36,515 nucleotides of DNA from Candidatus Levyibacteriota bacterium (GCA_039738415.1 JBCLLY010000007.1:1-36515); one strand, 5' to 3'. Counted from the first letter of the stretch, positions 3,251 through 21,293 are shown. The notes: generated from the letters alone by a model not told the origin. Translations and numbers: made by a program.

Positions 3251-4081
3251 ATGAGTAAAGTAATAATAAATCTGTGTCCAACGGGGATGGTTCCTACAAA
3301 AGAGATGAATTCTCATACTCCAATTACACCTGTTGAAATTATCAAAACAGCATTAGCTTGTGCAAGATTAGGTGCTTCTATTATCCATATCCATCCAAGA
3401 GATAAAGATGGAAAACCTACATGGAAAAGAGAAGTATTCGAACGAATAATCTACGGAATAAAAGAAAAAAATGATAAATTAATTATTAATGTTACAACCA
3501 GTGGTAGAAATTGGTCGGAATTTGAGAAGAGATCCGAATGTCTTGAAATAGACGGCCCCCTAAAACCCGATTTAGCTTCCTTAACTGTAGGCTCTTTAAA
3601 CTTTATGACTCAAGAGTCCGTTAGTTCTCCTACTATGATTGAAAAACTTGCTTTAAAGATGAAAGAGAAAGGAATTAAACCGGAACTTGAAGTATTTGAG
3701 CCCGGAATGATCCATAAGGCAAAATACCTAATTCGTAAGGGAATTATTGATTCAAATAGACCATATTTTAACATTCTATTAGGATCTTTGGGAACCTCAC
3801 CTCTTGAGCCGTCAGTTTTCTCAGCTTTTCATTCAATCTTACCGCAAGATTCTGTTTGGAGCGCTGCAGGCATTGGGCAATTTCAATTGGATGCAAACGT
3901 TATGGGTTTATCTTTTGGAGGACATGTTCGAGTAGGTCTTGAGGATAATCTATACTTTGATAGAGAGAAAAAGAAAGTGGCTTCAAATGAAAAATTGATT
4001 GAGAGAATTGCTTCAATAATTAGACTTATGAAACTCGAGGTTGCTACGCCCATAGAAGCACGTGAGATTCTTGATATTTAA
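3251..4081 (+). CDS. Beta-keto acid cleavage enzyme (BKACE/DUF849, 3-keto-5-aminohexanoate cleavage enzyme family)
   Basis: PITPxEI, GASIIHIHPRD (HxH metal motif), GIKPELEVFE and GGHVRVGLEDN. Confidence 0.93.
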   Translation: MSKVIINLCPTGMVPTKEMNSHTPITPVEIIKTALACARLGASIIHIHPRDKDGKPTWKREVFERIIYGIKEKNDKLIINVTTSGRNWSEFEKRSECLEIDGPLKPDLASLTVGSLNFMTQESVSSPTMIEKLALKMKEKGIKPELEVFEPGMIHKAKYLIRKGIIDSNRPYFNILLGSLGTSPLEPSVFSAFHSILPQDSVWSAAGIGQFQLDANVMGLSFGGHVRVGLEDNLYFDREKKKVASNEKLIERIASIIRLMKLEVATPIEAREILDI

Positions 4082-14201: not shown

Positions 14202-16289
14202 ATGAGAATTATAAAGAGAGATTATATTTTCCTTATTTTTTTAATAGCTTTAACATTAATAGTGTTTCATTCTTGGTTTACTTCTGGAACAATTGTTGGG
14301 GGAGACTTATCTTTTAGATACCATGAATCATTTGTGAGTTCTTATTTAATGCCTTATGTATGGAAATGGAGCAATAATTCTGGATTTGGGGGATTCAACG
14401 CCCCCTTTCTAGGAATTCACTACAATTCTATCTTAATCAATCTCTTAGGTCTAAGGCTAGGTTTAAGTTGGGAAATTTTAGTTCGAATAACCCAACTTTT
14501 TCCATTTTTATTTTTATCTTTCTTTTCTTCAATCTATATCTTTAGAAAAGTCTTTACCGACAATAAATTTTGGTTTTTGGCTCCTTTAATTTTTGTTTTT
14601 AACTCCTATATCCTTATGGTTGTAGGAGGCGGACAGATAATTCTGGCACTATCTTATACAATTAGCCCGCTAATTTTGTATTTCTATACTAAATTTTTAA
14701 ATAATTTAGAATTTAATCCCAAAAACATTATCTTAGGTGGACTGTTGCTTTCGGTTCAAGTAATGTTTGATTTGAGAATTACTTATATAACACTATTTGC
14801 TGTTGGAATTTATTGGATAATTTCTGTTTTTTTAAATAGAAATAAAAATTATATTTTTAAATCTCTATTTTTTGTTTCTTTAACTTTTTTTGTAGCGGGT
14901 TTAATACATGCATTTTGGCTTTTGCCTACTTTATTTTTTCATCAAAACCCACTCCAGCAATTAGGCAGTGCCTATACTACAGAAGGAGCGGTTCGCTTTT
15001 TTAGTTTTGCGAAATTTGAAGATGCAATTAGTCTCTTGCATCCTAATTGGCCGAAAAATATTTTCGGTAAAGTCGGCTTTATGAAGCCTGAGTTTTTACT
15101 TTTACCAATATTGGCGTTTTCTTCATTATTGTTTATCGGCAGAGGACAAAAAGTAGAAAACAAAAAACAGAGAGCCTATATATTTTTCTTTGCGTTGCTG
15201 GGTTTAATAGGAGCATTTTTGGCAAAAGGAGCCAACGATCCTTTCGGAGGGATATACCTTTGGATGTTTAATCATGTTCCGGGATTTATTATGTTCAGGG
15301 ATCCGACAAAATGGTACACACTCGTCGCTGTTAGTTATTCCATTCTTATCCCTTATTCAATATGGAATATCTACAGCTTCCTAAGTTCAAAGTTCAAAGT
15401 TCAAAGTTCAAAGTTAAGATTACAATTCAAAATTCAAAAATTTATTCCAAGTTTGTTTTTATTGTTTGTTGTTTTATATTTATTGTTTCTTATCAGTCCT
15501 GCTTTGATGGGGCAGTTAACAGGAACATTTAAATCAACAAAAATTCCTAATGAATATGTAGCTCTAGAAAAATATATATCTTCTCAAAATGGTTTTTTCA
15601 GAGTACTTTGGATACCGACCACACAAGCGTTCACTTTTAATTCAATTAATCATCCTGCTGTAAATTCGGAAAATTATTTTAAAACAACAGATTATTCTCA
15701 AATTCTTAAGAAAATGAGAACACCAGAAACAGAAAAACTGCTGCAGGAATCCGGAGTAAAGTATGTAATTGTTCCATATGACAGCTTGGGACAGATTTTT
15801 TTAAGTAATAGAAAGTATAACCAAAACCTATATTTTAAAACTGTATCAGATGTTAAGAAGACACCTTGGTTAAAAGAGATAAAAGGGTTTGGAAAAATTG
15901 CTGTTTTTGAAGTCCCCGAGTACAAGGATCATTTTTGGACAACCTCCAAAAGCTTATCCTTAAGTTATAAATACATAAGTCCTGTTCAGTATAGCGTTAA
16001 AGTAAAGAACGCAAAAAAGGGTGACCTAATAGTTTTTGCCGAAGATTATGATGCAAGATGGATGGCAACGGCGTTGCCGCCGTTAAACGTAAAACTTAAA
16101 ACTGAAAACGTAAAAATTGAGAGCACTAAGTTTGACAATAGGTTTAATAGCTTTGTTTTGCCAGGAGGAAATTATGAGCTTAATGTTTATTATTCACCCC
16201 AGAAGTGGGTTAATTTGGGTCTTATAATAAGCGGCACTACATTTATTTTCTTGATTGCACTTCTAGTTCGATTGAATATGAAAAAATGA
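14202..16289 (+). CDS. Large GT-C-like membrane protein (YfhO/AftD-like)
   Basis: GGD after TM1, many TM helices, an FRDPTKW motif, an extracellular C-domain with VKYVIV and FAEDYDARW, and a final TM helix. Confidence 0.7.
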   Translation: MRIIKRDYIFLIFLIALTLIVFHSWFTSGTIVGGDLSFRYHESFVSSYLMPYVWKWSNNSGFGGFNAPFLGIHYNSILINLLGLRLGLSWEILVRITQLFPFLFLSFFSSIYIFRKVFTDNKFWFLAPLIFVFNSYILMVVGGGQIILALSYTISPLILYFYTKFLNNLEFNPKNIILGGLLLSVQVMFDLRITYITLFAVGIYWIISVFLNRNKNYIFKSLFFVSLTFFVAGLIHAFWLLPTLFFHQNPLQQLGSAYTTEGAVRFFSFAKFEDAISLLHPNWPKNIFGKVGFMKPEFLLLPILAFSSLLFIGRGQKVENKKQRAYIFFFALLGLIGAFLAKGANDPFGGIYLWMFNHVPGFIMFRDPTKWYTLVAVSYSILIPYSIWNIYSFLSSKFKVQSSKLRLQFKIQKFIPSLFLLFVVLYLLFLISPALMGQLTGTFKSTKIPNEYVALEKYISSQNGFFRVLWIPTTQAFTFNSINHPAVNSENYFKTTDYSQILKKMRTPETEKLLQESGVKYVIVPYDSLGQIFLSNRKYNQNLYFKTVSDVKKTPWLKEIKGFGKIAVFEVPEYKDHFWTTSKSLSLSYKYISPVQYSVKVKNAKKGDLIVFAEDYDARWMATALPPLNVKLKTENVKIESTKFDNRFNSFVLPGGNYELNVYYSPQKWVNLGLIISGTTFIFLIALLVRLNMKK
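15383..15440 (+). repeat. In-frame heptamer array (AAGTTCA)4 plus degenerate units
   Basis: Encodes SKFKVQSSKLRLQFKIQK between two TM helices. Confidence 0.9.
16085..16119 (+). repeat. In-frame degenerate heptamer array
   Basis: aaacgta aaactta aaactga aaacgta aaaattg, encoding NVKLKTENVKI. Confidence 0.75.
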
Positions 16290-16501
16290 AACCGCAAGAT
16301 ATATTATTTATTATAGTGTTGGTTGGGCTTTTGTTTAAGCGGAACCCGAAATGGTTTGTTTGGGTAGGTCTTTCTTGTTTGATACTTTCGATTCCCCTCT
16401 TTTCCTTTTGGGTATTCTTTACTGCGCAAAGACTCACATATTACGCAGCGGGATTTTTGTCTATCGCGATAATGCTCATGCTATTCAAGAGGGAAAAGTA
16501 A
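16286..16501 (+). CDS. Small membrane protein of unknown function
   Basis: 71 aa, strongly hydrophobic, with an ATGA overlap with the upstream gene. Confidence 0.7.
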   Translation: MKPQDILFIIVLVGLLFKRNPKWFVWVGLSCLILSIPLFSFWVFFTAQRLTYYAAGFLSIAIMLMLFKREK

Positions 16502-16524
16502 GATTTGTGTGAGAATATCAATCC

Positions 16525-17778
16525 ATGGAAAATAATTTGGTAAAAAGGATAAATACATGTAGGATTTGTAAATCGACTGATTTGGTTGATGTCATTGATT
16601 TAACAGACCAGCCTATCCCAAATGGATTTCTTACGAAGGAAGATTTAAAACAAAAAGAAGAAAAATATCCCCTCGTGGCTGCGTTTTGCAAGAACTGTTC
16701 TCTCATGCAATTAAGGTATTTAGTAAACCCAAAAGTAATGTTTCAAAATTATCTTTACATCCCCTCGGCTTCAAAAACCCGCGTGAACCATTTTAAAGAA
16801 CTTGCGGAAGAAGTAAAAAAACTTACAAATTTTAACGAAAAGTCACTGATAATTGATATCGGAAGTAACGATGGGAGCCTGCTTATCGCTTTTAAAAATC
16901 TTGGAGCAAGAACACTTGGAATAGACCCTGCCCAAAATTTGGTAAAGGTTGCAGCGCTTTCCGGAATAGAAACTGTAAATGATTATTTTGAATCTAAAGT
17001 TGCTGCAAGGATTGGGAAAAAATACGGAAAAGCAAAAGCAATTTTGGCGACAAATGTAATAGCTCACATTAACAACCTGCATGAAGTTATAAAGGGCGGA
17101 GAGATTTTACTTGAAACTGATGGTGTATTTTTGATGCAATTTCCATATTTACTTGATTTAATAGAGAAAAATCTTTTTGATACTATTTATCACGAACATT
17201 TATCATACTTTTCAGTAAAATCCCTAATGGTTCTTGCCAAGAATTCGGATTTGGAAATATTTGATATAGAGAAAAGCGATTTGGACGGGGGGTCTCTCAA
17301 GGTCTATTGGAAGAAGAAAACAAATAAGAAAAGAAAAATTAACCAAGAAGGAATAGATAAAATCCTTAAGGAAGAGGAAGAGTTTGGATTATATAAAATT
17401 GAAACTTATGAAAAATTTGCTAAAAGAATTAAAAAATTAAAAGATTATGCTGTTAAAAAGTTAAAAGATTTAAAAAAGAGGAATAAAACAATTGTCGGAT
17501 ACGGGGCTGCTGCAAAGGCAAATGTACTACTCAATTATTTCGGAATAGATAAAAAGACAATAGACTATATAGTTGACTCAACTCCATTTAAGCAGGGAAA
17601 ATACACTCCGGGCAGTCACATCCCTATTTACTCTGAGGATAAAATATACGAAACAAATCCTGATTACGTAATTATATTTGCGTGGAATTTTGCAAAAGAA
17701 ATTATGGAGAAGAACAAAAGGTATAAAAATAATGGAGGAAAATTTATCTTCATCGAGCCAGAATTTAGAATAGAATAA
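16525..17778 (+). CDS. NDP-sugar C-methyltransferase family protein (NovU/TcaB9/EryBIII-like)
   Basis: Zn motif CRIC...CKNC, DIGSNDG, FDTIYHEHLSYFS, GYGAAAK and KQGKYTPGSHIPI. Confidence 0.9.
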   Translation: MENNLVKRINTCRICKSTDLVDVIDLTDQPIPNGFLTKEDLKQKEEKYPLVAAFCKNCSLMQLRYLVNPKVMFQNYLYIPSASKTRVNHFKELAEEVKKLTNFNEKSLIIDIGSNDGSLLIAFKNLGARTLGIDPAQNLVKVAALSGIETVNDYFESKVAARIGKKYGKAKAILATNVIAHINNLHEVIKGGEILLETDGVFLMQFPYLLDLIEKNLFDTIYHEHLSYFSVKSLMVLAKNSDLEIFDIEKSDLDGGSLKVYWKKKTNKKRKINQEGIDKILKEEEEFGLYKIETYEKFAKRIKKLKDYAVKKLKDLKKRNKTIVGYGAAAKANVLLNYFGIDKKTIDYIVDSTPFKQGKYTPGSHIPIYSEDKIYETNPDYVIIFAWNFAKEIMEKNKRYKNNGGKFIFIEPEFRIE

Positions 17779-17788
17779 GGAATTTGTG

Positions 17789-17818
17789 TTTGTTTGAAAT
17801 CCTTTCAATTGAGTATAA
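17789..17818 (+). promoter_or_regulatory. Possible sigma70 promoter upstream of the microsatellite and the TrpR-like gene
   Basis: Perfect TATAAT (~17813-17818) with TTGTTT/TTGAAA candidates upstream. The spacing is non-optimal. Confidence 0.35.
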
Positions 17819-17899
17819 TTAACCCAGTTAAATAATTTTAAATTCGTCTATTTTTTTATTTGTTAAGTTTGATACATAAGAAATTCAACCCGTAAGTCT

Positions 17900-17955
17900 A
17901 AACAAACAAACAAACAAACAAACAAACAAACAAACAAACAAACAAACAAACAAAC
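17900..17955. repeat. Perfect tetranucleotide microsatellite (AAAC)14
   Basis: Counted 56 bp of uninterrupted AAAC units in the intergenic region. Confidence 0.97.
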
Positions 17956-17994
17956 AACATGTTCTGTATTATGTGTATGGTTTATAAGAATACT

Positions 17995-18027
17995 TACTTT
18001 GCTGCTACGTAGCATAGTAGCAAAGTA
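17995..18027. promoter_or_regulatory. Palindromic site, copy 1 (operator or recombination-site candidate)
   Basis: tactttgctgcta-cgtagca-tagtagcaaagta has 13-bp inverted arms (1 mismatch) around a 7-bp spacer and contains the perfect palindrome tgctacgtagca. Confidence 0.7.
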
Positions 18028-18058
18028 AAAAATATATTGGCTATATTGACTAACCAAA

Positions 18059-18568
18059 ATGAGTGCAATTTCAAAAAAGGAAAAAAGGGAATTGATCCTG
18101 GATTTGATACATGGATTTGTCTTGTGTAAAACTATTGATGAGGTCATAATTTTTCTTGAGGACCTCATAACAAAAAAGGAACTTGAGACTTTATCTAAAA
18201 GGCTGCGGATTGCGAAACTTTTGATAAAAGGCTATGATTACCGTGAAATTCAGGAGATTGTACACGCAAGTCACTCAACTATCGCTAAAATTTCTTACTG
18301 GCTTTCCGAAAGAGGTGAGGGTTTTAGACAAATAGTAAGGACACTTCCTAAAGAAAGTGCTAATCTAATTGATCCATTGGAATATGATGCATGGGCAGAT
18401 TTAAGGAAAAGGTATCCCGGATACTTTCTCCCTGAACTTATTATGGAAGGAATAGTGAAGAATAGATCGGGAAAGAAGCAGAAGAGGATATCAAGTTCCC
18501 TTAAAAATCTGGAAATATCTTTAAATAGAAAAAAAGCAATAGGTAAAGAAGTTGATAAACAATCCTAA
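18059..18568 (+). CDS. TrpR-like (YerC/YecD) HTH transcriptional regulator with a C-terminal extension
   Basis: FLEDLITKKELETLSKRLRIAKLL..G.DYREIQ...ASHSTIAKIS..L...GEGF matches the Trp repressor fold. Confidence 0.88.
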   Translation: MSAISKKEKRELILDLIHGFVLCKTIDEVIIFLEDLITKKELETLSKRLRIAKLLIKGYDYREIQEIVHASHSTIAKISYWLSERGEGFRQIVRTLPKESANLIDPLEYDAWADLRKRYPGYFLPELIMEGIVKNRSGKKQKRISSSLKNLEISLNRKKAIGKEVDKQS

Positions 18569-18573
18569 GACTA

Positions 18574-18705
18574 CTTCAATTTACCTTACTCTTTACCCCG
18601 CATCCCAATGCCCCGACACGCTTCGCCAAGTCAGACTTGGCTTCGCAAAGCTACAGCGAGGCGAGCCGTAAGGTCGTGGGAGCTTCAATTTACCTTACTC
18701 TCTAC
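18574..18705. repeat. Direct repeat (19 bp perfect, 22/23 extended) bracketing a GC-rich insert
   Basis: cttcaatttaccttactct at 18574-18592 and 18683-18701. Confidence 0.9.
18592..18683. mobile_element. GC-rich MITE/REP-like element, copy A, with a nested 28-bp insertion
   Basis: Aligns to the reverse complement of 35497-35560 in blocks of 32/35, 9/9 and 13/15. The extra segment contains the hairpin gccaagtc-a-gacttggc. Confidence 0.75.
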
Positions 18706-18706
18706 T

Positions 18707-18736
18707 TTACTTTGCTGCTACGTAGCACAGTAGCAA
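18707..18736. promoter_or_regulatory. Palindromic site, copy 2
   Basis: ttactttgctgctacgtagcacagtagcaa is 29/30 identical to 17994-18023, in the same orientation, ~70 bp upstream of ATG 18805. Confidence 0.7.
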
Positions 18737-18804
18737 GCTGTTAGCAAATCGGTCTAGCAGAAATTGGAGTTTAATTTAAAGAGATGAAACTGTACAATTA
18801 AGAC

Positions 18805-19338
18805 ATGAAAATAGGAATTGATATCAGCCAGCTTGCCTATCCAAATATCGGGGTTGCGAATTATCTGTGGAATTTGGTTAAGGCGTTGGTTGAGGAAAAT
18901 AAGGATATCGAATTTGTATTGTTTTTCAGCTCTCTCAGAAGGAGTATCCAGTATCCAGTATCCAGTATTCAGTATAAGAATGTAACTATAAGAAGATTCA
19001 GGATTCCGCCGACAATTTTAGATTTATTGTGGAATAGGCTTCATATAGCACCAATTGAGTGGTTTGTGGGAGACGTTGATGTATTCATAACCTCAGACTG
19101 GACAGAGCCCCCAGTAAGACAAGCTAAGAAAGCGACCATTATCTATGATCTAATCGTCTATAAACACCCTGAAGAAACGGACAAAAAAATTGTTCAAACA
19201 CAAAAAAGAAAATTAAATTGGGTTAAGAAGGAAGCAGATTCTATTATTTGTATTTCTCAGTCAACTAAAAACGATGTAATAGAAATATTAGGCATTGATG
19301 ATAAAAAAGTAAGTGTTATTTATCCAGGGCTATTATGA
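18805..19338 (+). CDS. GT4 N-terminal domain only (truncated or stand-alone)
   Basis: MKIGIDIS...GVANY...TIIYDL...IICISQSTKND...VIYPG and then a stop. There is no EGFG-containing C-domain. Confidence 0.75.
   Translation: MKIGIDISQLAYPNIGVANYLWNLVKALVEENKDIEFVLFFSSLRRSIQYPVSSIQYKNVTIRRFRIPPTILDLLWNRLHIAPIEWFVGDVDVFITSDWTEPPVRQAKKATIIYDLIVYKHPEETDKKIVQTQKRKLNWVKKEADSIICISQSTKNDVIEILGIDDKKVSVIYPGLL
18943..18977 (+). repeat. In-frame heptamer array (AGTATCC)3 AGTATTC AGTATAA
   Basis: Encodes SIQYPVSSIQYK. Confidence 0.9.
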
Positions 19339-20516
19339 AGATTGGAATAAATGGTTTTGAAGCAGTTGTGCCGAGGTTTGGATATGATAAGACAACAGGT
19401 CTTCCAAACCGCGTAGGGAGTAGTGAAGTTTGTTTCCAGCTTCTTAATCAATTTTCAAAAATTGATAAAAAAAATGAGTATATAGTTTATTTACCTCAAA
19501 AACCAACGGAGGACATGCCAAAAGAAAATGATAATTGGAAGTACGAAGTTATACCAAATACTAAGCTCTGGACAATATTTGGTTTAAACAGAAAATTAAT
19601 TACAAATTCAAAATTGGATGTATTTTTTTCGTCCACTCATTATGGCCCGCTTTATACTCATTGCCCTCAAGTAATTTCAATTCTTGACGTTTCGTACAAA
19701 TATTTTCCCGAGATGTTCCGCAGAATTGATCTTTTAAAGCTTGCACTTTGGGGCAAGTACTCGATTAAAAAAGCCCAAAAAATAATTACGATAAGTGATA
19801 GCTCTAAGAATGATATAATTAATGAATACAATATTGACCCGAGAAAAATAAGCGTGGTTTACCCGGGTCTAAAATTCGAAGTTCAAAATCATAAATCCGA
19901 AATAAATTCAAAACTTAAAATGCAAAATTCAAAACTACTAAAAGAGAAATATAACATTAATTCTCCTTACATTTTGTTCGTAGGTACACTTCAGCCTAGA
20001 AAGAATATTGTTCGGCTTGTAGAGGCGTTTGCGGAACTTACAACTAAAAACCTAAAACTTAAAAGTGATTTGGATTTGGTTATTGTTGGAAGACGCGGGT
20101 GGAATTATGAGGAAATTCTGGAAGCTCCGAAAAAGTTTGGAGTTGAGAAAAAAGTGCGTTTCATAGAGAATGTTACAGATAACGATTTACCTACATTCTA
20201 TAAGAACGCGGATGTTTTTGTGTTACCCAGTCTTTATGAAGGGTTTGGATTGCCGGTTTTGGAAGCTATGCGCTACGGGTGCCCTGTTTTAACAAGTAAT
20301 ATTTCTTCACTACCCGAGGCAGGAGGAGATGCTGCCATTTATTTTAATCCAAATGATACAAATGACATTGCTGACAAAATAAATAAAGTTTTGGGAGATG
20401 AAAAATTGAGAGAGGAAATGATTGAAAAAGGTTACGAGCAGGTAAAAAAATTTTCTTGGGAAAAGAGCGCGAGAGAGGTTTTGCAGGTTTTAGAGGAAAC
20501 AGTAAAGCCAGTATAG
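19335..20516 (+). CDS. GT4 glycosyltransferase (MtfB/WbdB mannosyltransferase-like)
   Basis: FVGTLQPRKN, PSLYEGFGLPVLEAM and FSWEKSA. Confidence 0.93.
   Translation: MKIGINGFEAVVPRFGYDKTTGLPNRVGSSEVCFQLLNQFSKIDKKNEYIVYLPQKPTEDMPKENDNWKYEVIPNTKLWTIFGLNRKLITNSKLDVFFSSTHYGPLYTHCPQVISILDVSYKYFPEMFRRIDLLKLALWGKYSIKKAQKIITISDSSKNDIINEYNIDPRKISVVYPGLKFEVQNHKSEINSKLKMQNSKLLKEKYNINSPYILFVGTLQPRKNIVRLVEAFAELTTKNLKLKSDLDLVIVGRRGWNYEEILEAPKKFGVEKKVRFIENVTDNDLPTFYKNADVFVLPSLYEGFGLPVLEAMRYGCPVLTSNISSLPEAGGDAAIYFNPNDTNDIADKINKVLGDEKLREEMIEKGYEQVKKFSWEKSAREVLQVLEETVKPV
19872..19938 (+). repeat. In-frame degenerate heptamer array in the GT4 inter-domain linker
   Basis: aaattcg aagttca aaatcat aaatccg aaat aaattca aaactta aaatgca aaattca aaactac. 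Confidence 0.75.
20035..20069 (+). repeat. In-frame degenerate heptamer array
   Basis: aacttac aactaaa aacctaa aacttaa aagtgat, encoding LTTKNLKLKSD. Confidence 0.6.
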
Positions 20517-20578
20517 AGTATAGAGTATAGAGCATTGAGTAGAATTCTATACAGAATACAGAATACAGAATACAAACT
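20510..20578 (+). repeat. Two heptamer arrays filling the intergenic space: (AGTATAG)3 plus 2 degenerate units, and (ACAGAAT)3 plus 1
   Basis: Read directly. The first unit contains the upstream stop TAG, and the last ends 1 nt before ATG 20580. Confidence 0.9.
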
Positions 20579-20579
20579 T

Positions 20580-21134
20580 ATGTTAAATAAAATGATTAAT
20601 AGAATAAATACGGTTTTATTAGAATTTGAGAATCTGATTTTAAAAATTGTCGGAGTGGTTCCTTCCCACTTCTTCCGGAGGTTTTTTTATAGAGTATCCG
20701 GGATGAAGATTGGGGCAGGCTCGACTATTCATACAGGGGCAGTGTTTTATGATGCAGGCAATATCACAATTGGAAAAGATACAATAATTGGAGAAAATGC
20801 TGTTTTTGACGGACGGGAAAAAATAAACATCGGAAATCACGTCGATTTTGCATCGGAGGTTATGATTTATAATTCCCAGCATGATATACAAAGCGATGAC
20901 TTTGGAGTAATATCTGAGCCGGTTGTTATAAAGGACTATGTATTTATAGGTCCGAGGGCGATTATTTTGCCGGGTGTTACAATCGGACGTGGTGCGGTTG
21001 TTGCTGCAGGTGCGGTAGTTACAAGAAATGTAGGAGATTTTGAAATCGTAGGTGGAGTACCCGCAAAAGTAATTGGAGAGCGCAAATTAAAAGATCCTAA
21101 GTACGAACTTGGCAGGGCTGCTTGGTTTAGGTGA
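20580..21134 (+). CDS. Hexapeptide-repeat O-acyltransferase (maltose/galactoside acetyltransferase-like)
   Basis: LbH repeats, NSQHD, GAVVAAGAVVT and GGVPAKVI. The TTG start at 20535 only adds repeat-derived residues. Confidence 0.9.
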   Translation: MLNKMINRINTVLLEFENLILKIVGVVPSHFFRRFFYRVSGMKIGAGSTIHTGAVFYDAGNITIGKDTIIGENAVFDGREKINIGNHVDFASEVMIYNSQHDIQSDDFGVISEPVVIKDYVFIGPRAIILPGVTIGRGAVVAAGAVVTRNVGDFEIVGGVPAKVIGERKLKDPKYELGRAAWFR

Positions 21135-21293
21135 GTATTGAGTATTCAGTATTGAGTATTCAGTATAGAAAACATTAAGAGATTAACGTATTAACAACAA
21201 ATTAAAATATTAACAAGTTAACAAATTTTAAATTATAGTAAATTAGTACAGGGGGGTTAATCTTTTAGTTTTTTAATTTTTTAATTTTTTAAT
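21133..21293. repeat. Intergenic composite: 5 heptamers, then inverted 8-bp-period arrays
   Basis: gagtatt gagtatt cagtatt gagtatt cagtata (21133-21167); ATTAAC-type 8-mers (~21172-21225); inverted gttaatct tttagttt tttaattt tttaattt tttaat (21256-21293). Confidence 0.8.

Follow-up and report, generated by a model that had tools for sequence, protein, structure and literature searches.

Heptamer tandem arrays in a glycan cluster of a Candidatus Levyibacteriota bacterium and their co-occurrence with PF05635 cassettes

The window, i.e., the whole stretch of 36,515 nucleotides analysed here, belongs to a Candidatus Levyibacteriota bacterium (GCA_039738415.1, JBCLLY010000007.1:1-36515; genome G000, 0.8 Mb), and its tandem arrays of 7-nt units sit in a surface-glycan cluster, both inside genes and at their junctions. 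The genes and arrays concerned are the following:

14202-16289, + strand: 695-aa polytopic membrane protein without a Pfam family, host of the first two arrays
15383-15439, + strand: heptamer array 1, AAGTTCA in 4.7 perfect copies, then AATTCAA-type units, in the 695-aa protein
16081-16115, + strand: heptamer array 2, degenerate, 5.0 copies, 82% matches, TRF score 42
18805-19338, + strand: GT4 N-domain-only protein of 177 aa (half-GT), conserved upstream of the glycosyltransferase (GT) in relatives
18943-18975, + strand: heptamer array 3, AGTATCC in 4.7 copies, 96% matches, in the GT4 N-domain protein
19335-20516, + strand: GT4 (GT-B) glycosyltransferase of 393 aa, host of the two marginal tracts
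19866-19938, + strand: decayed period-7/14 tract in the GT4 interdomain linker, marginal
20032-20070, + strand: weak period-7 tract inside the GT C-domain, marginal, without a TRF call
20510-20541, + strand: junction array, AGTATAG in 4.6 copies
20549-20574, + strand: junction array, ATACAGA in 3.7 copies, 100% matches
20581-21134, + strand: hexapeptide acyltransferase (acetyltransferase), bracketed by junction arrays
21132-21166, + strand: junction array, TGAGTAT/TCAGTAT in 5.0 copies
21257-21293, + strand: period-8 array, TTAATTTT in 4.6 copies, directly upstream of the GT2 start (21298)

Seven heptamer sites had been listed in the original prediction, five of which are clear period-7 arrays by TRF, while those at 19872 and 20035 are marginal. 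In the former tract, TRF calls only period 14 (19904-19934, 2.2 copies, 82%, score 41), and lag 7 is the best lag with 19/28 matches; it is likewise the best lag of the latter with 18-20/28, a level that other lags reach as well. In a scan scoring the matches per 28 positions at a given lag, segments of the window with at least 22/28 matches number six at lag 7, against 0-2 at the others among lags 4-12, and those with at least 19/28 number 10 against 0-4, all lag-7 segments lying between 13.4 and 21.3 kb. The same comparison over the whole genome shows that period 7 is hugely enriched and its neighbours are not: there are 39 perfect lag runs of at least 14 with period 7, 15 with period 14 and 11 with period 21, each remaining period between 2 and 20 has 0-4, Markov-3 simulations (n = 5) gave means of 0-0.2, and TRF arrays scoring at least 50 occupy 57 rows at period 7 and 2, 8 and 5 rows at periods 6, 8 and 9, respectively. 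As 49 distinct canonical units occur among the 90 arrays of the genome, the view of a single period-7 phenomenon, largely independent of the unit, is borne out.

One feature first read from the window weakens at this scale. The A-richness of the coding strand is slight, as A exceeds T in 17 of the 31 in-gene arrays, and the clearer compositional bias is G-poverty (0.10 vs 0.21). Nor are the arrays special to the glycan locus, since they also occur in MreB, arginyl-tRNA synthetase (ArgRS), TsaD, MiaA and the 23S rRNA gene; the four proteins named and a FemAB-family protein make up five of the eight Pfam-annotated hosts among 10 examined, and a GATase_3 protein is another host. Regarding placement, ORFs cover 88% of the genome and 59/90 arrays lie between genes or on a gene edge, and the arrays of at least 77 nt are all of this kind, except one of 96 nt in a crude ORF on contig C11. 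Arrays reach 42 copies, and the commonest length is 31-35 nt (31/90); a preferred length of about 33 nt is not concluded, because the TRF score threshold shapes this distribution.

The arrays within ORFs of the window are in frame and yield the peptides quoted at the outset. Array 1, called by TRF at 15383-15415 with 100% matches and extending to 15439, is translated as SSKFKVQSSKLRLQFKIQKF, residues 394-413 of the membrane protein. In the same loop, the closest orthologs (L002, L003 and L004) have their own heptamer array with related units, and in more distant orthologs the loop is short and free of repeats. The match level at the orthologous loop is 76% in G025, 92% in G029, 96% in G037 and 100% in G000, genomes with 0, 5, 4 and 9 PF05635 genes, respectively; thus, array perfection at this loop follows the presence of PF05635. 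Array 2 (23/28 lag-7 matches) is in frame at residues 627-638, where it is an insertion of 8-10 aa compared to five of seven orthologs, and L003 has at this site an AGAATTC array and a GC-rich hairpin. The proposed position of the in-gene copies between transmembrane helices fits array 1, which abuts a predicted transmembrane segment, but not array 2, which lies in the C-terminal soluble part. Array 3 encodes SIQYPVSSIQY, residues 47-57 of the stand-alone GT4 N-domain protein, in a loop after FFSSLRR that carries near-perfect arrays of other units (AATTTTC, AAATCTC, AAATTCA) in L167, L169, L170 and L161 and non-repeat stretches of 11, 15 and 9 aa in L164, L168 and L162. The GT4 linker also varies in length among orthologs, the Pfam domains ending at residue 179 and resuming at 203. 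Long match spans in relatives had suggested some 500 extra nt within their GT, but this stretch is the conserved upstream half-GT gene. Alignment of the host proteins with their orthologs shows that the peptides are not conserved sequence but fill variable loops in a lineage-specific way. In addition, neither an inverted partner nor a fold (z +0.35 to +1.22) was found for the in-gene arrays of the window. Those of the membrane protein and of the two glycosyltransferase proteins are probably low-complexity loop sequence that the proteins tolerate, rather than parts with a function in the glycan pathway.

The junction arrays surround the acetyltransferase, whose true start, by alignment with L161, is the ATG at 20581. 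The first unit of 20510-20541 includes the GT stop codon TAG (20514-20516), and the array at 20549-20574, partly complementary to it, ends 6 nt before the ATG. L161 has a stop/start overlap at this junction, so the window has about 67 extra nucleotides consisting of both arrays; their hairpin (20510-20574; region 20500-20585) has -10.1 kcal/mol and a non-significant z of -0.79. On the other side, the array at 21132-21166 opens with TGA, the stop codon of the acetyltransferase, and folds at -16.6 kcal/mol (z -4.15, with 0/200 shuffles as good); read as a 14-nt super-unit, it is self-complementary. This 3' junction has about 165 extra nucleotides compared to L161, and the period-8 array at 21257-21293 belongs to the same inserted junction. 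Both acetyltransferase junctions probably carry arrays of the type found in the cassette arms described below, and one of them is a strong predicted RNA hairpin starting from the stop codon. The acetyltransferase as a cargo between the inverted arms 20549-20574 and 21132-21166 was considered and is unsupported: in the fold of 681 nt, the ensemble centroid pairs these arms and the MFE does not, their unit match of 17/21 is also reached by composition controls, and the duplex energy across the gene (-32.1 kcal/mol) is equalled by 17% of 60 control ORFs and is thus not significant.

The genome has nine genes of the PF05635 (S23p/IVS-protein) family, and eight of them have inverted short tandem arrays on both flanks, with an arm period of 7 in five and of 6, 8 and 9/16 in one each; the period of 8 recurs in the array upstream of GT2. 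A period-7 array with a TRF score of at least 40 lies within 200 nt of 4/9 PF05635 genes and of 77/774 ORFs (Fisher p 0.009). Neither a PF05635 gene nor a remnant of one lies on the contig of the window, and a purpose-built HMM finds none at E <= 10 either. In this genome and its relatives the cassettes sit between protein-coding genes, and one orthologous operon junction, that between half-GT and GT, is occupied in some of the relatives compared by an entire cassette, in others by a single arm, and is otherwise empty. L163 has there a PF05635 gene whose arms are AAAGTAT and ATACTTA, L175, L176 and L177 have the same gene and arms just upstream of the GT, after the end of a half-GT-like gene, L161 has only the right arm, and the window has a 4-nt gene overlap. 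Moreover, the layout and ATAC-type unit of the array at 20549-20574 match the right arm of the L175 cassette. Considering all 90 arrays, an inverted partner (at least 17/21 within 1.5 kb) is found for 16 and a direct one for 18, compared to 5-11 in composition controls; general pairing as inverted repeats is therefore rejected as a minority feature, and because only these 16 have an inverted partner, most arrays are not cassette arms.

Similar constructions occur in ribosomal RNA. Two insertions are present in the 23S rRNA gene of G000. One is a hairpin of 124 nt built from heptamer arrays (z -7.9), which is missing in G002, where the flanks are 95-97% identical; the other, with array arms, lies at model position 583. 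Both rRNA insertions have small GC hairpin termini, which were found at no other array. Set against the corresponding empty sites of same-genus genomes, arrays between genes belong to insertions of +58 to +154 nt; the in-gene arrays differ from these genomes by +21, +24, +9 or 0 nt, one of them (a48) resembling an in-place expansion of a pre-existing heptamer by 21 nt.

The co-occurrence of arrays and PF05635 genes was then followed in relatives by counting perfect lag-7 runs of at least 12 in samples of 20-200 kb per relative, G014 being outside the sample. No run was found in G001, G002, G025, G039 and G021 (200 kb each), G023 (191 kb), G034 (80 kb) and G004 (20 kb), all with zero PF05635 genes; the exception is G040, with two runs in 70 kb. 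Therefore, eight of the nine sampled relatives lacking PF05635, both same-genus genomes among them, have no perfect heptamer run. Among the carriers, runs number 18 in G038, 14 in G031, 13 in G006, 1 in G003 and 0 in G035 (200 kb each), 5 in 160 kb of G022, 1 in 140 kb of G005 and 67 in the 797 kb of G000. The Spearman correlation between PF05635 genes and lag-7 runs is 0.79 over 17 genomes, and all four within-genus contrasts have the same direction, with runs accompanying PF05635. Class-wide, where one unit family, (AAANTTC)x3, was counted in 201 related genomes, the pattern occurs in 66/147 genomes with PF05635 and 4/54 without (odds ratio 10.2, p 2.4e-7, kin not being independent). The four with the pattern and no PF05635 gene are G058, G113, G204 and G225; conversely, no pattern or run is seen in G175 and G035 despite their 19 genes and one gene, respectively, and dose-dependence on PF05635 copy number is weak. 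The footprint of four-helix-bundle elements that had been proposed for the window is thus upheld in part: the flanking arms of 8/9 genes, the co-occurrence across genomes and the cassette at an orthologous operon junction speak for it, and the lack of a PF05635 gene or remnant in the window and the unpaired in-gene arrays without a fold speak against it.

Taken together, the arrays of the window are probably the local part of a genome- and lineage-wide period-7 population that travels with PF05635 IVS cassettes. The arms of the cassettes consist of short tandem arrays in inverted orientation, with 7 as the prevailing period; hairpins built likewise but without a gene occur at operon junctions and in the 23S rRNA gene, permissive protein loops hold solitary arrays in frame, and relatives without a PF05635 gene are mostly without clean arrays. 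An activity tied to the cassettes, originating from the four-helix-bundle protein itself or from something travelling with the PF05635 cassettes, would spread arm-type arrays into tight gene junctions; keeping to a 7-nt register, it would also expand or re-homogenise heptamer seeds where they lie. Selection would then retain only those copies whose added length is divisible by 3 and which are free of stops and fall in loops or linkers, and the arrays would decay upon loss of the PF05635 gene. The correlation itself is directionless, and the arrays could instead be landing pads for the cassettes rather than their product. A bolder version, to be held only tentatively, is that an unrecognised element writes, spreads or re-homogenises 7-nt-period arrays, with the S23p/Avd-like four-helix-bundle protein as its trans-acting factor and gene junctions, rRNA helices and protein loops as its possible targets. 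Regarding the way of writing, no RVT_1 match, and hence no reverse transcriptase, was found in G000 (86% complete), leaving a DGR-like mechanism without support, and it was rejected.

A first rival, although unlikely, is that the arrays are ordinary microsatellites produced by polymerase slippage favouring 7-nt units, a hypothesis attributed to Mrazek 2007 (via PMC4692102), the PF05635 genes being unrelated bystanders that prefer repeat-rich DNA or share a mobile-DNA-rich background. The arbitrary units, the resemblance of array a48 to growth in place and the distance of the majority of arrays from any cassette agree with slippage, as does the heptamer SSR excess of many bacteria, for which a polymerase-footprint explanation is given in PMC4692102. 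However, the same-genus genomes, with a similar G+C (0.37-0.40), have 0 perfect lag-7 runs per 200 kb each, compared to 8.4 per 100 kb in G000, and such an on/off pattern within a genus argues against a general polymerase property; furthermore, array presence tracks PF05635, and the junction arrays come as composite insertions of 58-154 nt, not as growth of the local sequence.

It is still less probable that the arrays serve a nucleic-acid-binding protein as binding tracks, through which it would control translation or the fate of the mRNA at junctions, with the in-gene copies as spill-over; candidates for the binder are the pentameric four-helix-bundle protein and a factor of the S1/Csp/CsrA type, the latter having been proposed for TAACTGA. 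In the window, L161 and L175, junction arrays end 0-6 nt before starts or begin at stops, much as MacGregor describes for the TAACTGA repeats (PMC4679880), the PF05635 protein of G000 matches 2GSC (E 3.6e-22), a toroidal pentamer (Warrier et al. 2016, PMC4990558), and PF05635 resembles the DGR accessory protein Avd, but 49 different units are ill-suited to a sequence-specific binder, and arrays also lie within rRNA and deep in ORFs. Finally, contingency loci, in which gain or loss of a single 7-nt unit would shift the frame and switch surface-glycan genes, are very improbable and fit poorly as originally suggested: the glycan setting of the window, a unit that is not a multiple of 3 and the variable heptamer copy number among Coxiella strains (PMC4990558) and between Xanthomonas species (PMC4692102) would suit them, but in-gene arrays occur in MreB, ArgRS, TsaD, MiaA and FemAB-family proteins, where switching off would be harmful, the arrays are short (4-5 units), and the loops of relatives are of similar length, without frameshifted genes. 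Of the reads that would bear on unit number, one DNA run contains 45% of the words sampled.

Comparing with known systems, the closest repeats are the heptanucleotide long SSRs, including the STRR of heterocystous cyanobacteria (Calothrix/Nostoc), GGGAATC of Xanthomonas and GGGGA(T/C)T of Nostoc (Rehm et al. 2015, PMC4692102). As described there, they also consist of head-to-tail 7-nt units of several sequences at many loci per genome, are mostly intergenic with some inverted pairs, differ in length and sequence between close relatives and have an unknown function. The arrays studied here differ by their 0.8-Mb CPR genome, their AT-rich and very diverse units (49 types), the translation in frame of about one third of them, housekeeping genes included, and the tracking of PF05635, a link not made in that paper (PMC4692102); they are not STRR in the strict sense, as the host is of the small CPR type, not a heterocystous cyanobacterium, and the units differ. 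The TAACTGA direct repeats of Beggiatoaceae, cyanobacteria and Bacteroidetes (MacGregor 2015, PMC4679880) likewise occur within operons, a few nucleotides before the start codons, have a patchy phylogenetic distribution and reach about 43 copies in some genomes, compared to 42 here; however, they have a single dominant unit, related heptamers being rarely repeated, whereas here the unit is free and the period constant. The IVS of 23S rRNA bearing S23p, known from Coxiella, Leptospira, Brucella and Xanthomonas, share the PF05635 ORF family with the cassettes of this genome; they have a stem of terminal inverted repeats and, in the stem region, tandem heptamers with strain-variable copy number, i.e., 2-3 GACAGAT repeats in Coxiella (Warrier et al. 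2016, PMC4990558). Array-armed insertions in the 23S gene of this genome add to the likeness, but the window arrays lie outside rRNA, without an ORF and mostly without a partner arm. A further mark of such IVS is their removal from the transcript by RNase III. Haemophilus hmw1A heptanucleotide repeats, a phase-variable contingency SSR (PMC8262952), share a unit that is not a multiple of 3 in or beside surface-structure genes, whereas the arrays here are not restricted to such genes and form short tracts. Nor do the arrays constitute a MITE/REP-like family with conserved sequence and termini, as the 49 units are unrelated. Rickettsia palindromic elements (RPEs) are selfish repeats translated in frame in protein surface loops, housekeeping proteins included, and form a conserved sequence family of about 100-150 nt; in contrast, here there is no conserved sequence, only the 7-nt period in arrays of about 30 nt.

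In this light, to speak of an undescribed system would be too strong for the repeats themselves, as the heptamer SSR excess, the TAACTGA repeats of Beggiatoaceae and the Coxiella IVS heptamers are in print, and bacterial heptamer repeats have been noticed for decades, from the cyanobacterial heptanucleotides to the SSR over-representation of 2007 (Mazel 1990 and Mrazek 2007, both via PMC4692102). Heptamer repeats and PF05635/IVS elements are known separately, and no genome-wide link between them was found in the literature searched.

For the CPR, the arrays matter in gene calling, as they create spurious ORFs and false upstream starts, and in structure prediction, as they insert 7-aa-periodic peptides into enzymes. 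To our knowledge, the heptamer tandem repeats of bacteria have no accepted cause or function, and we know of no function for the S23p/PF05635 four-helix-bundle family, some members of which are relatives of the retroelement accessory protein Avd. A reproducible link, with its four parts (the cassette arms, the co-occurrence at the genus and class levels, the junction series of full cassette, arm only and empty site, and the array-built 23S insertions), would give each of them a testable explanation. If the four-helix-bundle protein were indeed the trans-acting factor, the bacterial heptamer excess, as in the STRR of cyanobacteria, Xanthomonas, Beggiatoaceae and the CPR, would be a footprint of PF05635 and not of polymerase slippage.

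The window carries a surface-glycan cluster (GT2, GT4, PMT_2, flippase-like, DegT, C-methyltransferase, hexapeptide acyltransferase and Bac_transf genes), and its heptamer arrays are real and far beyond chance. In the stretch flagged by the original prediction, six arrays of period 7 are clearly called by TRF (forward-strand positions):

15383-15415, extending to 15439: array 1, in the gene of a 695-aa membrane protein (14202-16289)
16081-16115: array 2, in the same gene
18943-18975: array in the half-GT gene (GT4 N-domain-only protein, 18805-19338)
20510-20541: junction array, between the GT4 gene (GT, 19335-20516) and the acetyltransferase gene (20581-21134)
20549-20574: junction array, at the same junction
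21132-21166: junction array, after the acetyltransferase gene

The two further tracts that had been listed are weak: TRF calls the one at 19872 at period 14 only and gives no call for the one at 20035, and both show 18-20/28 matches at lag 7 in a lag scan, their best lag but a level also reached by other lags. The same scan found six window segments with at least 22/28 matches at lag 7 against 0-2 at lags 4-12, every lag-7 segment being located between 13.4 and 21.3 kb. In agreement with the original prediction, the arrays inside ORFs keep the frame, and translation gives the peptides quoted there, with a 7-aa period. At the junctions, the stop codons of GT and of the acetyltransferase each fall within the first unit of the array that follows.

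The window makes up a complete contig of the assembly (G000; 797.5 kb in 19 contigs, 37% G+C), and period 7 is enriched throughout this genome: of the perfect lag runs of at least 14, 39 have period 7, 15 have period 14 and 11 have period 21, against 0-4 for every other period from 2 to 20 and about 0 in Markov-3 simulations. Likewise, TRF gave 57 rows scoring at least 50 for period 7, but 2, 8 and 5 for periods 6, 8 and 9. After merging, 90 period-7 arrays with 49 distinct canonical units were obtained, the longest having 42 copies; 44 are intergenic, 15 lie across a gene edge and 31 within crude ORFs, in a genome that is 88% ORF. Arrays of at least 77 nt are intergenic or at gene edges, with one exception of 96 nt within a crude ORF on contig C11. 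On the same contig (C11:14417-14908), perfectly inverted TGAATAC and TCAGTAT arrays, separated by 350 nt, enclose a non-coding core, and the second array extends in frame into a pilin-like ORF (motif GFTLIEYLV), at its leader.

Ortholog alignments of the 695-aa protein and the half-GT confirmed the array peptides as insertions, sited in variable loops. At the site of array 1, the loop is short in five orthologs (about 40% identity), and each of the three closest orthologs (48-49%) has a heptamer array of its own, with related units (TTCAAAG in the window; TTCAAAT, TTTCAAT and TTCAAAA in the orthologs). Array 2 is an 8-10-aa insertion, and at exactly that site one ortholog bears both a GC-rich hairpin and a heptamer array that differs from array 2. 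The half-GT loop that follows FFSSLRR contains perfect or near-perfect arrays of differing units in four related loci (L161, L167, L169, L170) and non-repeat sequence of roughly similar length in three others (L162, L164, L168); the window unit, AGTATCC, bears no relation to the units in these loci and is one of the AGTAT-type units common in G000. The half-GT itself (175-196 aa) is conserved directly upstream of the full GT4 (L161-L185), where 16 of the 25 best metagenome loci examined gave a tblastn match, which marks it as a real gene rather than a truncated pseudogene. GC-rich hairpins adjoining heptamer arrays are translated in frame in orthologs of the 695-aa protein (L002, ~2760-2800; L003, ~3411-3450). 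Small elements of a second kind appear to be nested at sites of arrays.

Genomes of the same genus have no arrays, their orthologous sites being empty or non-repetitive. Compared with these sites, the in-gene arrays differ in length by +21, +24, +9 or 0 nt, and the intergenic ones are part of insertions of +58 to +154 nt at otherwise tight junctions. On the two sides of the acetyltransferase, the junctions are about 67 nt and about 165 nt longer than in the syntenic locus L161, which has overlapping genes.

Regarding the proposal that the arrays are contingency sites, their hosts extend beyond glycan genes: among ten annotated ORFs with in-gene arrays, eight have Pfam assignments to MreB, arginyl-tRNA synthetase, TsaD, MiaA, FemAB-family, GATase_3, amine oxidase and GT2, which argues against dedicated phase-variation switches. 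Folding is limited, as the in-gene arrays of the window do not fold (z +0.35 to +1.22), the hairpin at 20500-20585 is not significant (z -0.79), and only that at 21132-21166 is (z -4.15). The acetyltransferase flanks pair no better than controls, and only 16 of the 90 arrays genome-wide have an inverted partner within 1.5 kb.

Other repeats surround the Trp-repressor-like HTH gene (18059-18568). About 100 nt upstream is a perfect (AAAC)x14.5 tract of 58 bases (17900-17957), the genome's sole long array of period 4. Its resemblance to a classical contingency or promoter-spacing repeat is closer than that of the heptamers. Near-identical direct repeats of ~30 nt, partly palindromic (TACTTTGCTGCTACGTAGCA[T/C]AGTAGCAA), are found on either side of the gene (~17994-18025 and ~18708-18738). 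At 18574-18701, a perfect 19-nt direct repeat, CTTCAATTTACCTTACTCT, borders a GC-rich core of ~90 nt (18593-18682), which looks like an insertion with target duplication.

The proposed link to four-helix-bundle genes (PF05635, the S23p/IVS-protein family, which resembles Avd) is supported at the genome level, through array arms and co-occurrence, but not locally, as none of the nine PF05635 genes of G000 is on the window contig. One of the nine proteins matches the Xanthomonas S23p structure 2GSC (E 3.6e-22), and no reverse transcriptase was found. By inspection of flanks, 8/9 genes are bracketed by mutually inverted short tandem arrays, with a period of 7 in five and of 6, 8 and 9/16 in the remaining ones; under a strict TRF criterion, an array lies within 200 nt of 4/9 genes against 77/774 ORFs (p 0.009). 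Perfect lag-7 runs were then compared across 17 genomes of the order, sampling 20-200 kb in those lacking PF05635. No run was found in eight of the nine genomes without the family, both same-genus ones included, the exception (G040) having two in 70 kb. Genomes with 4-14 copies showed 1-18 runs per 140-200 kb, one with a single copy (G035) showed none, and lags other than 7 gave 0-1 runs everywhere. Spearman rho is 0.79, and the same trend is seen in four within-genus contrasts. At the level of the class (201 genomes), (AAANTTC)x3 was present in 66/147 genomes with PF05635 against 4/54 without (odds ratio 10.2; p 2.4e-7, which exaggerates the significance, as related genomes are not independent), and the reversed-pattern control matched only six genomes.

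The operon of the window was searched in relatives with an HMM from eight G000 four-helix-bundle proteins. A four-helix-bundle gene lies between half-GT and GT in L163, and at the matching position in L175, L176 and L177, in a cassette whose AAAGTAT-type left arm starts from the upstream stop codon and whose ATACTTA-type right arm reaches the GT start codon. At this junction, L161 has no such gene but retains a right arm that can be aligned, and in the window half-GT and GT overlap by 4 nt. Upstream of the window acetyltransferase, (AGTATAG)n...(ATACAGA)n...ATG has a cassette-like layout with similar units and only 7 nt between the arms.

The 23S rRNA gene of G000 measures 4491 nt against a 2925-position model and contains about 1.5 kb of inserted sequence in total. 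Insertion 1 (124 nt, at about 283-288 in the model) forms a near-perfect hairpin with heptamer-array arms (-44.5 kcal/mol, z -7.9) and is absent from the same-genus G002, whose flanks are 95-97% identical; insertion 2 (model position 583) begins with an AAGTTAA array. These two array-armed insertions are located on contig C9 (23S region L241):

C9:5098-5232 (L241 1796-1930): array-armed 23S insertion
C9:5533-5683 (L241 2231-2381): array-armed 23S insertion

Both have the GC hairpins CTTGTCC-N3-GGACAAG and CTCGTC-N4-6-GGACGAG at their two ends, which occur at no other array in G000. The array-armed insertions tie the heptamer arrays to classical intervening sequences, such as the Coxiella IVS, where 2-3 strain-variable GACAGAT repeats precede the S23p ORF (PMC4990558). 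Literature searches pairing IVS, S23p or PF05635 with heptamers found only that paper, and heptamer terms and CPR names did not occur together in any of the matches listed. An excess of heptamer SSRs in bacteria has been described with a polymerase-footprint hypothesis (PMC4692102), and TAACTGA repeats adjoining start codons have been reported (PMC4679880).

The arrays are also a hazard for annotation: in the window, a false TTG start upstream of the acetyltransferase gene arises from the junction arrays (20535-20580), and elsewhere arrays give rise to entire spurious ORFs (e.g., C11:11305-11562). A causal link between arrays and cassettes, which could run in either direction, and its mechanism are inferred. 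The arrays of the window are a local sample of a lineage-wide heptamer population, which co-occurs with S23p-type cassettes and forms their arms.
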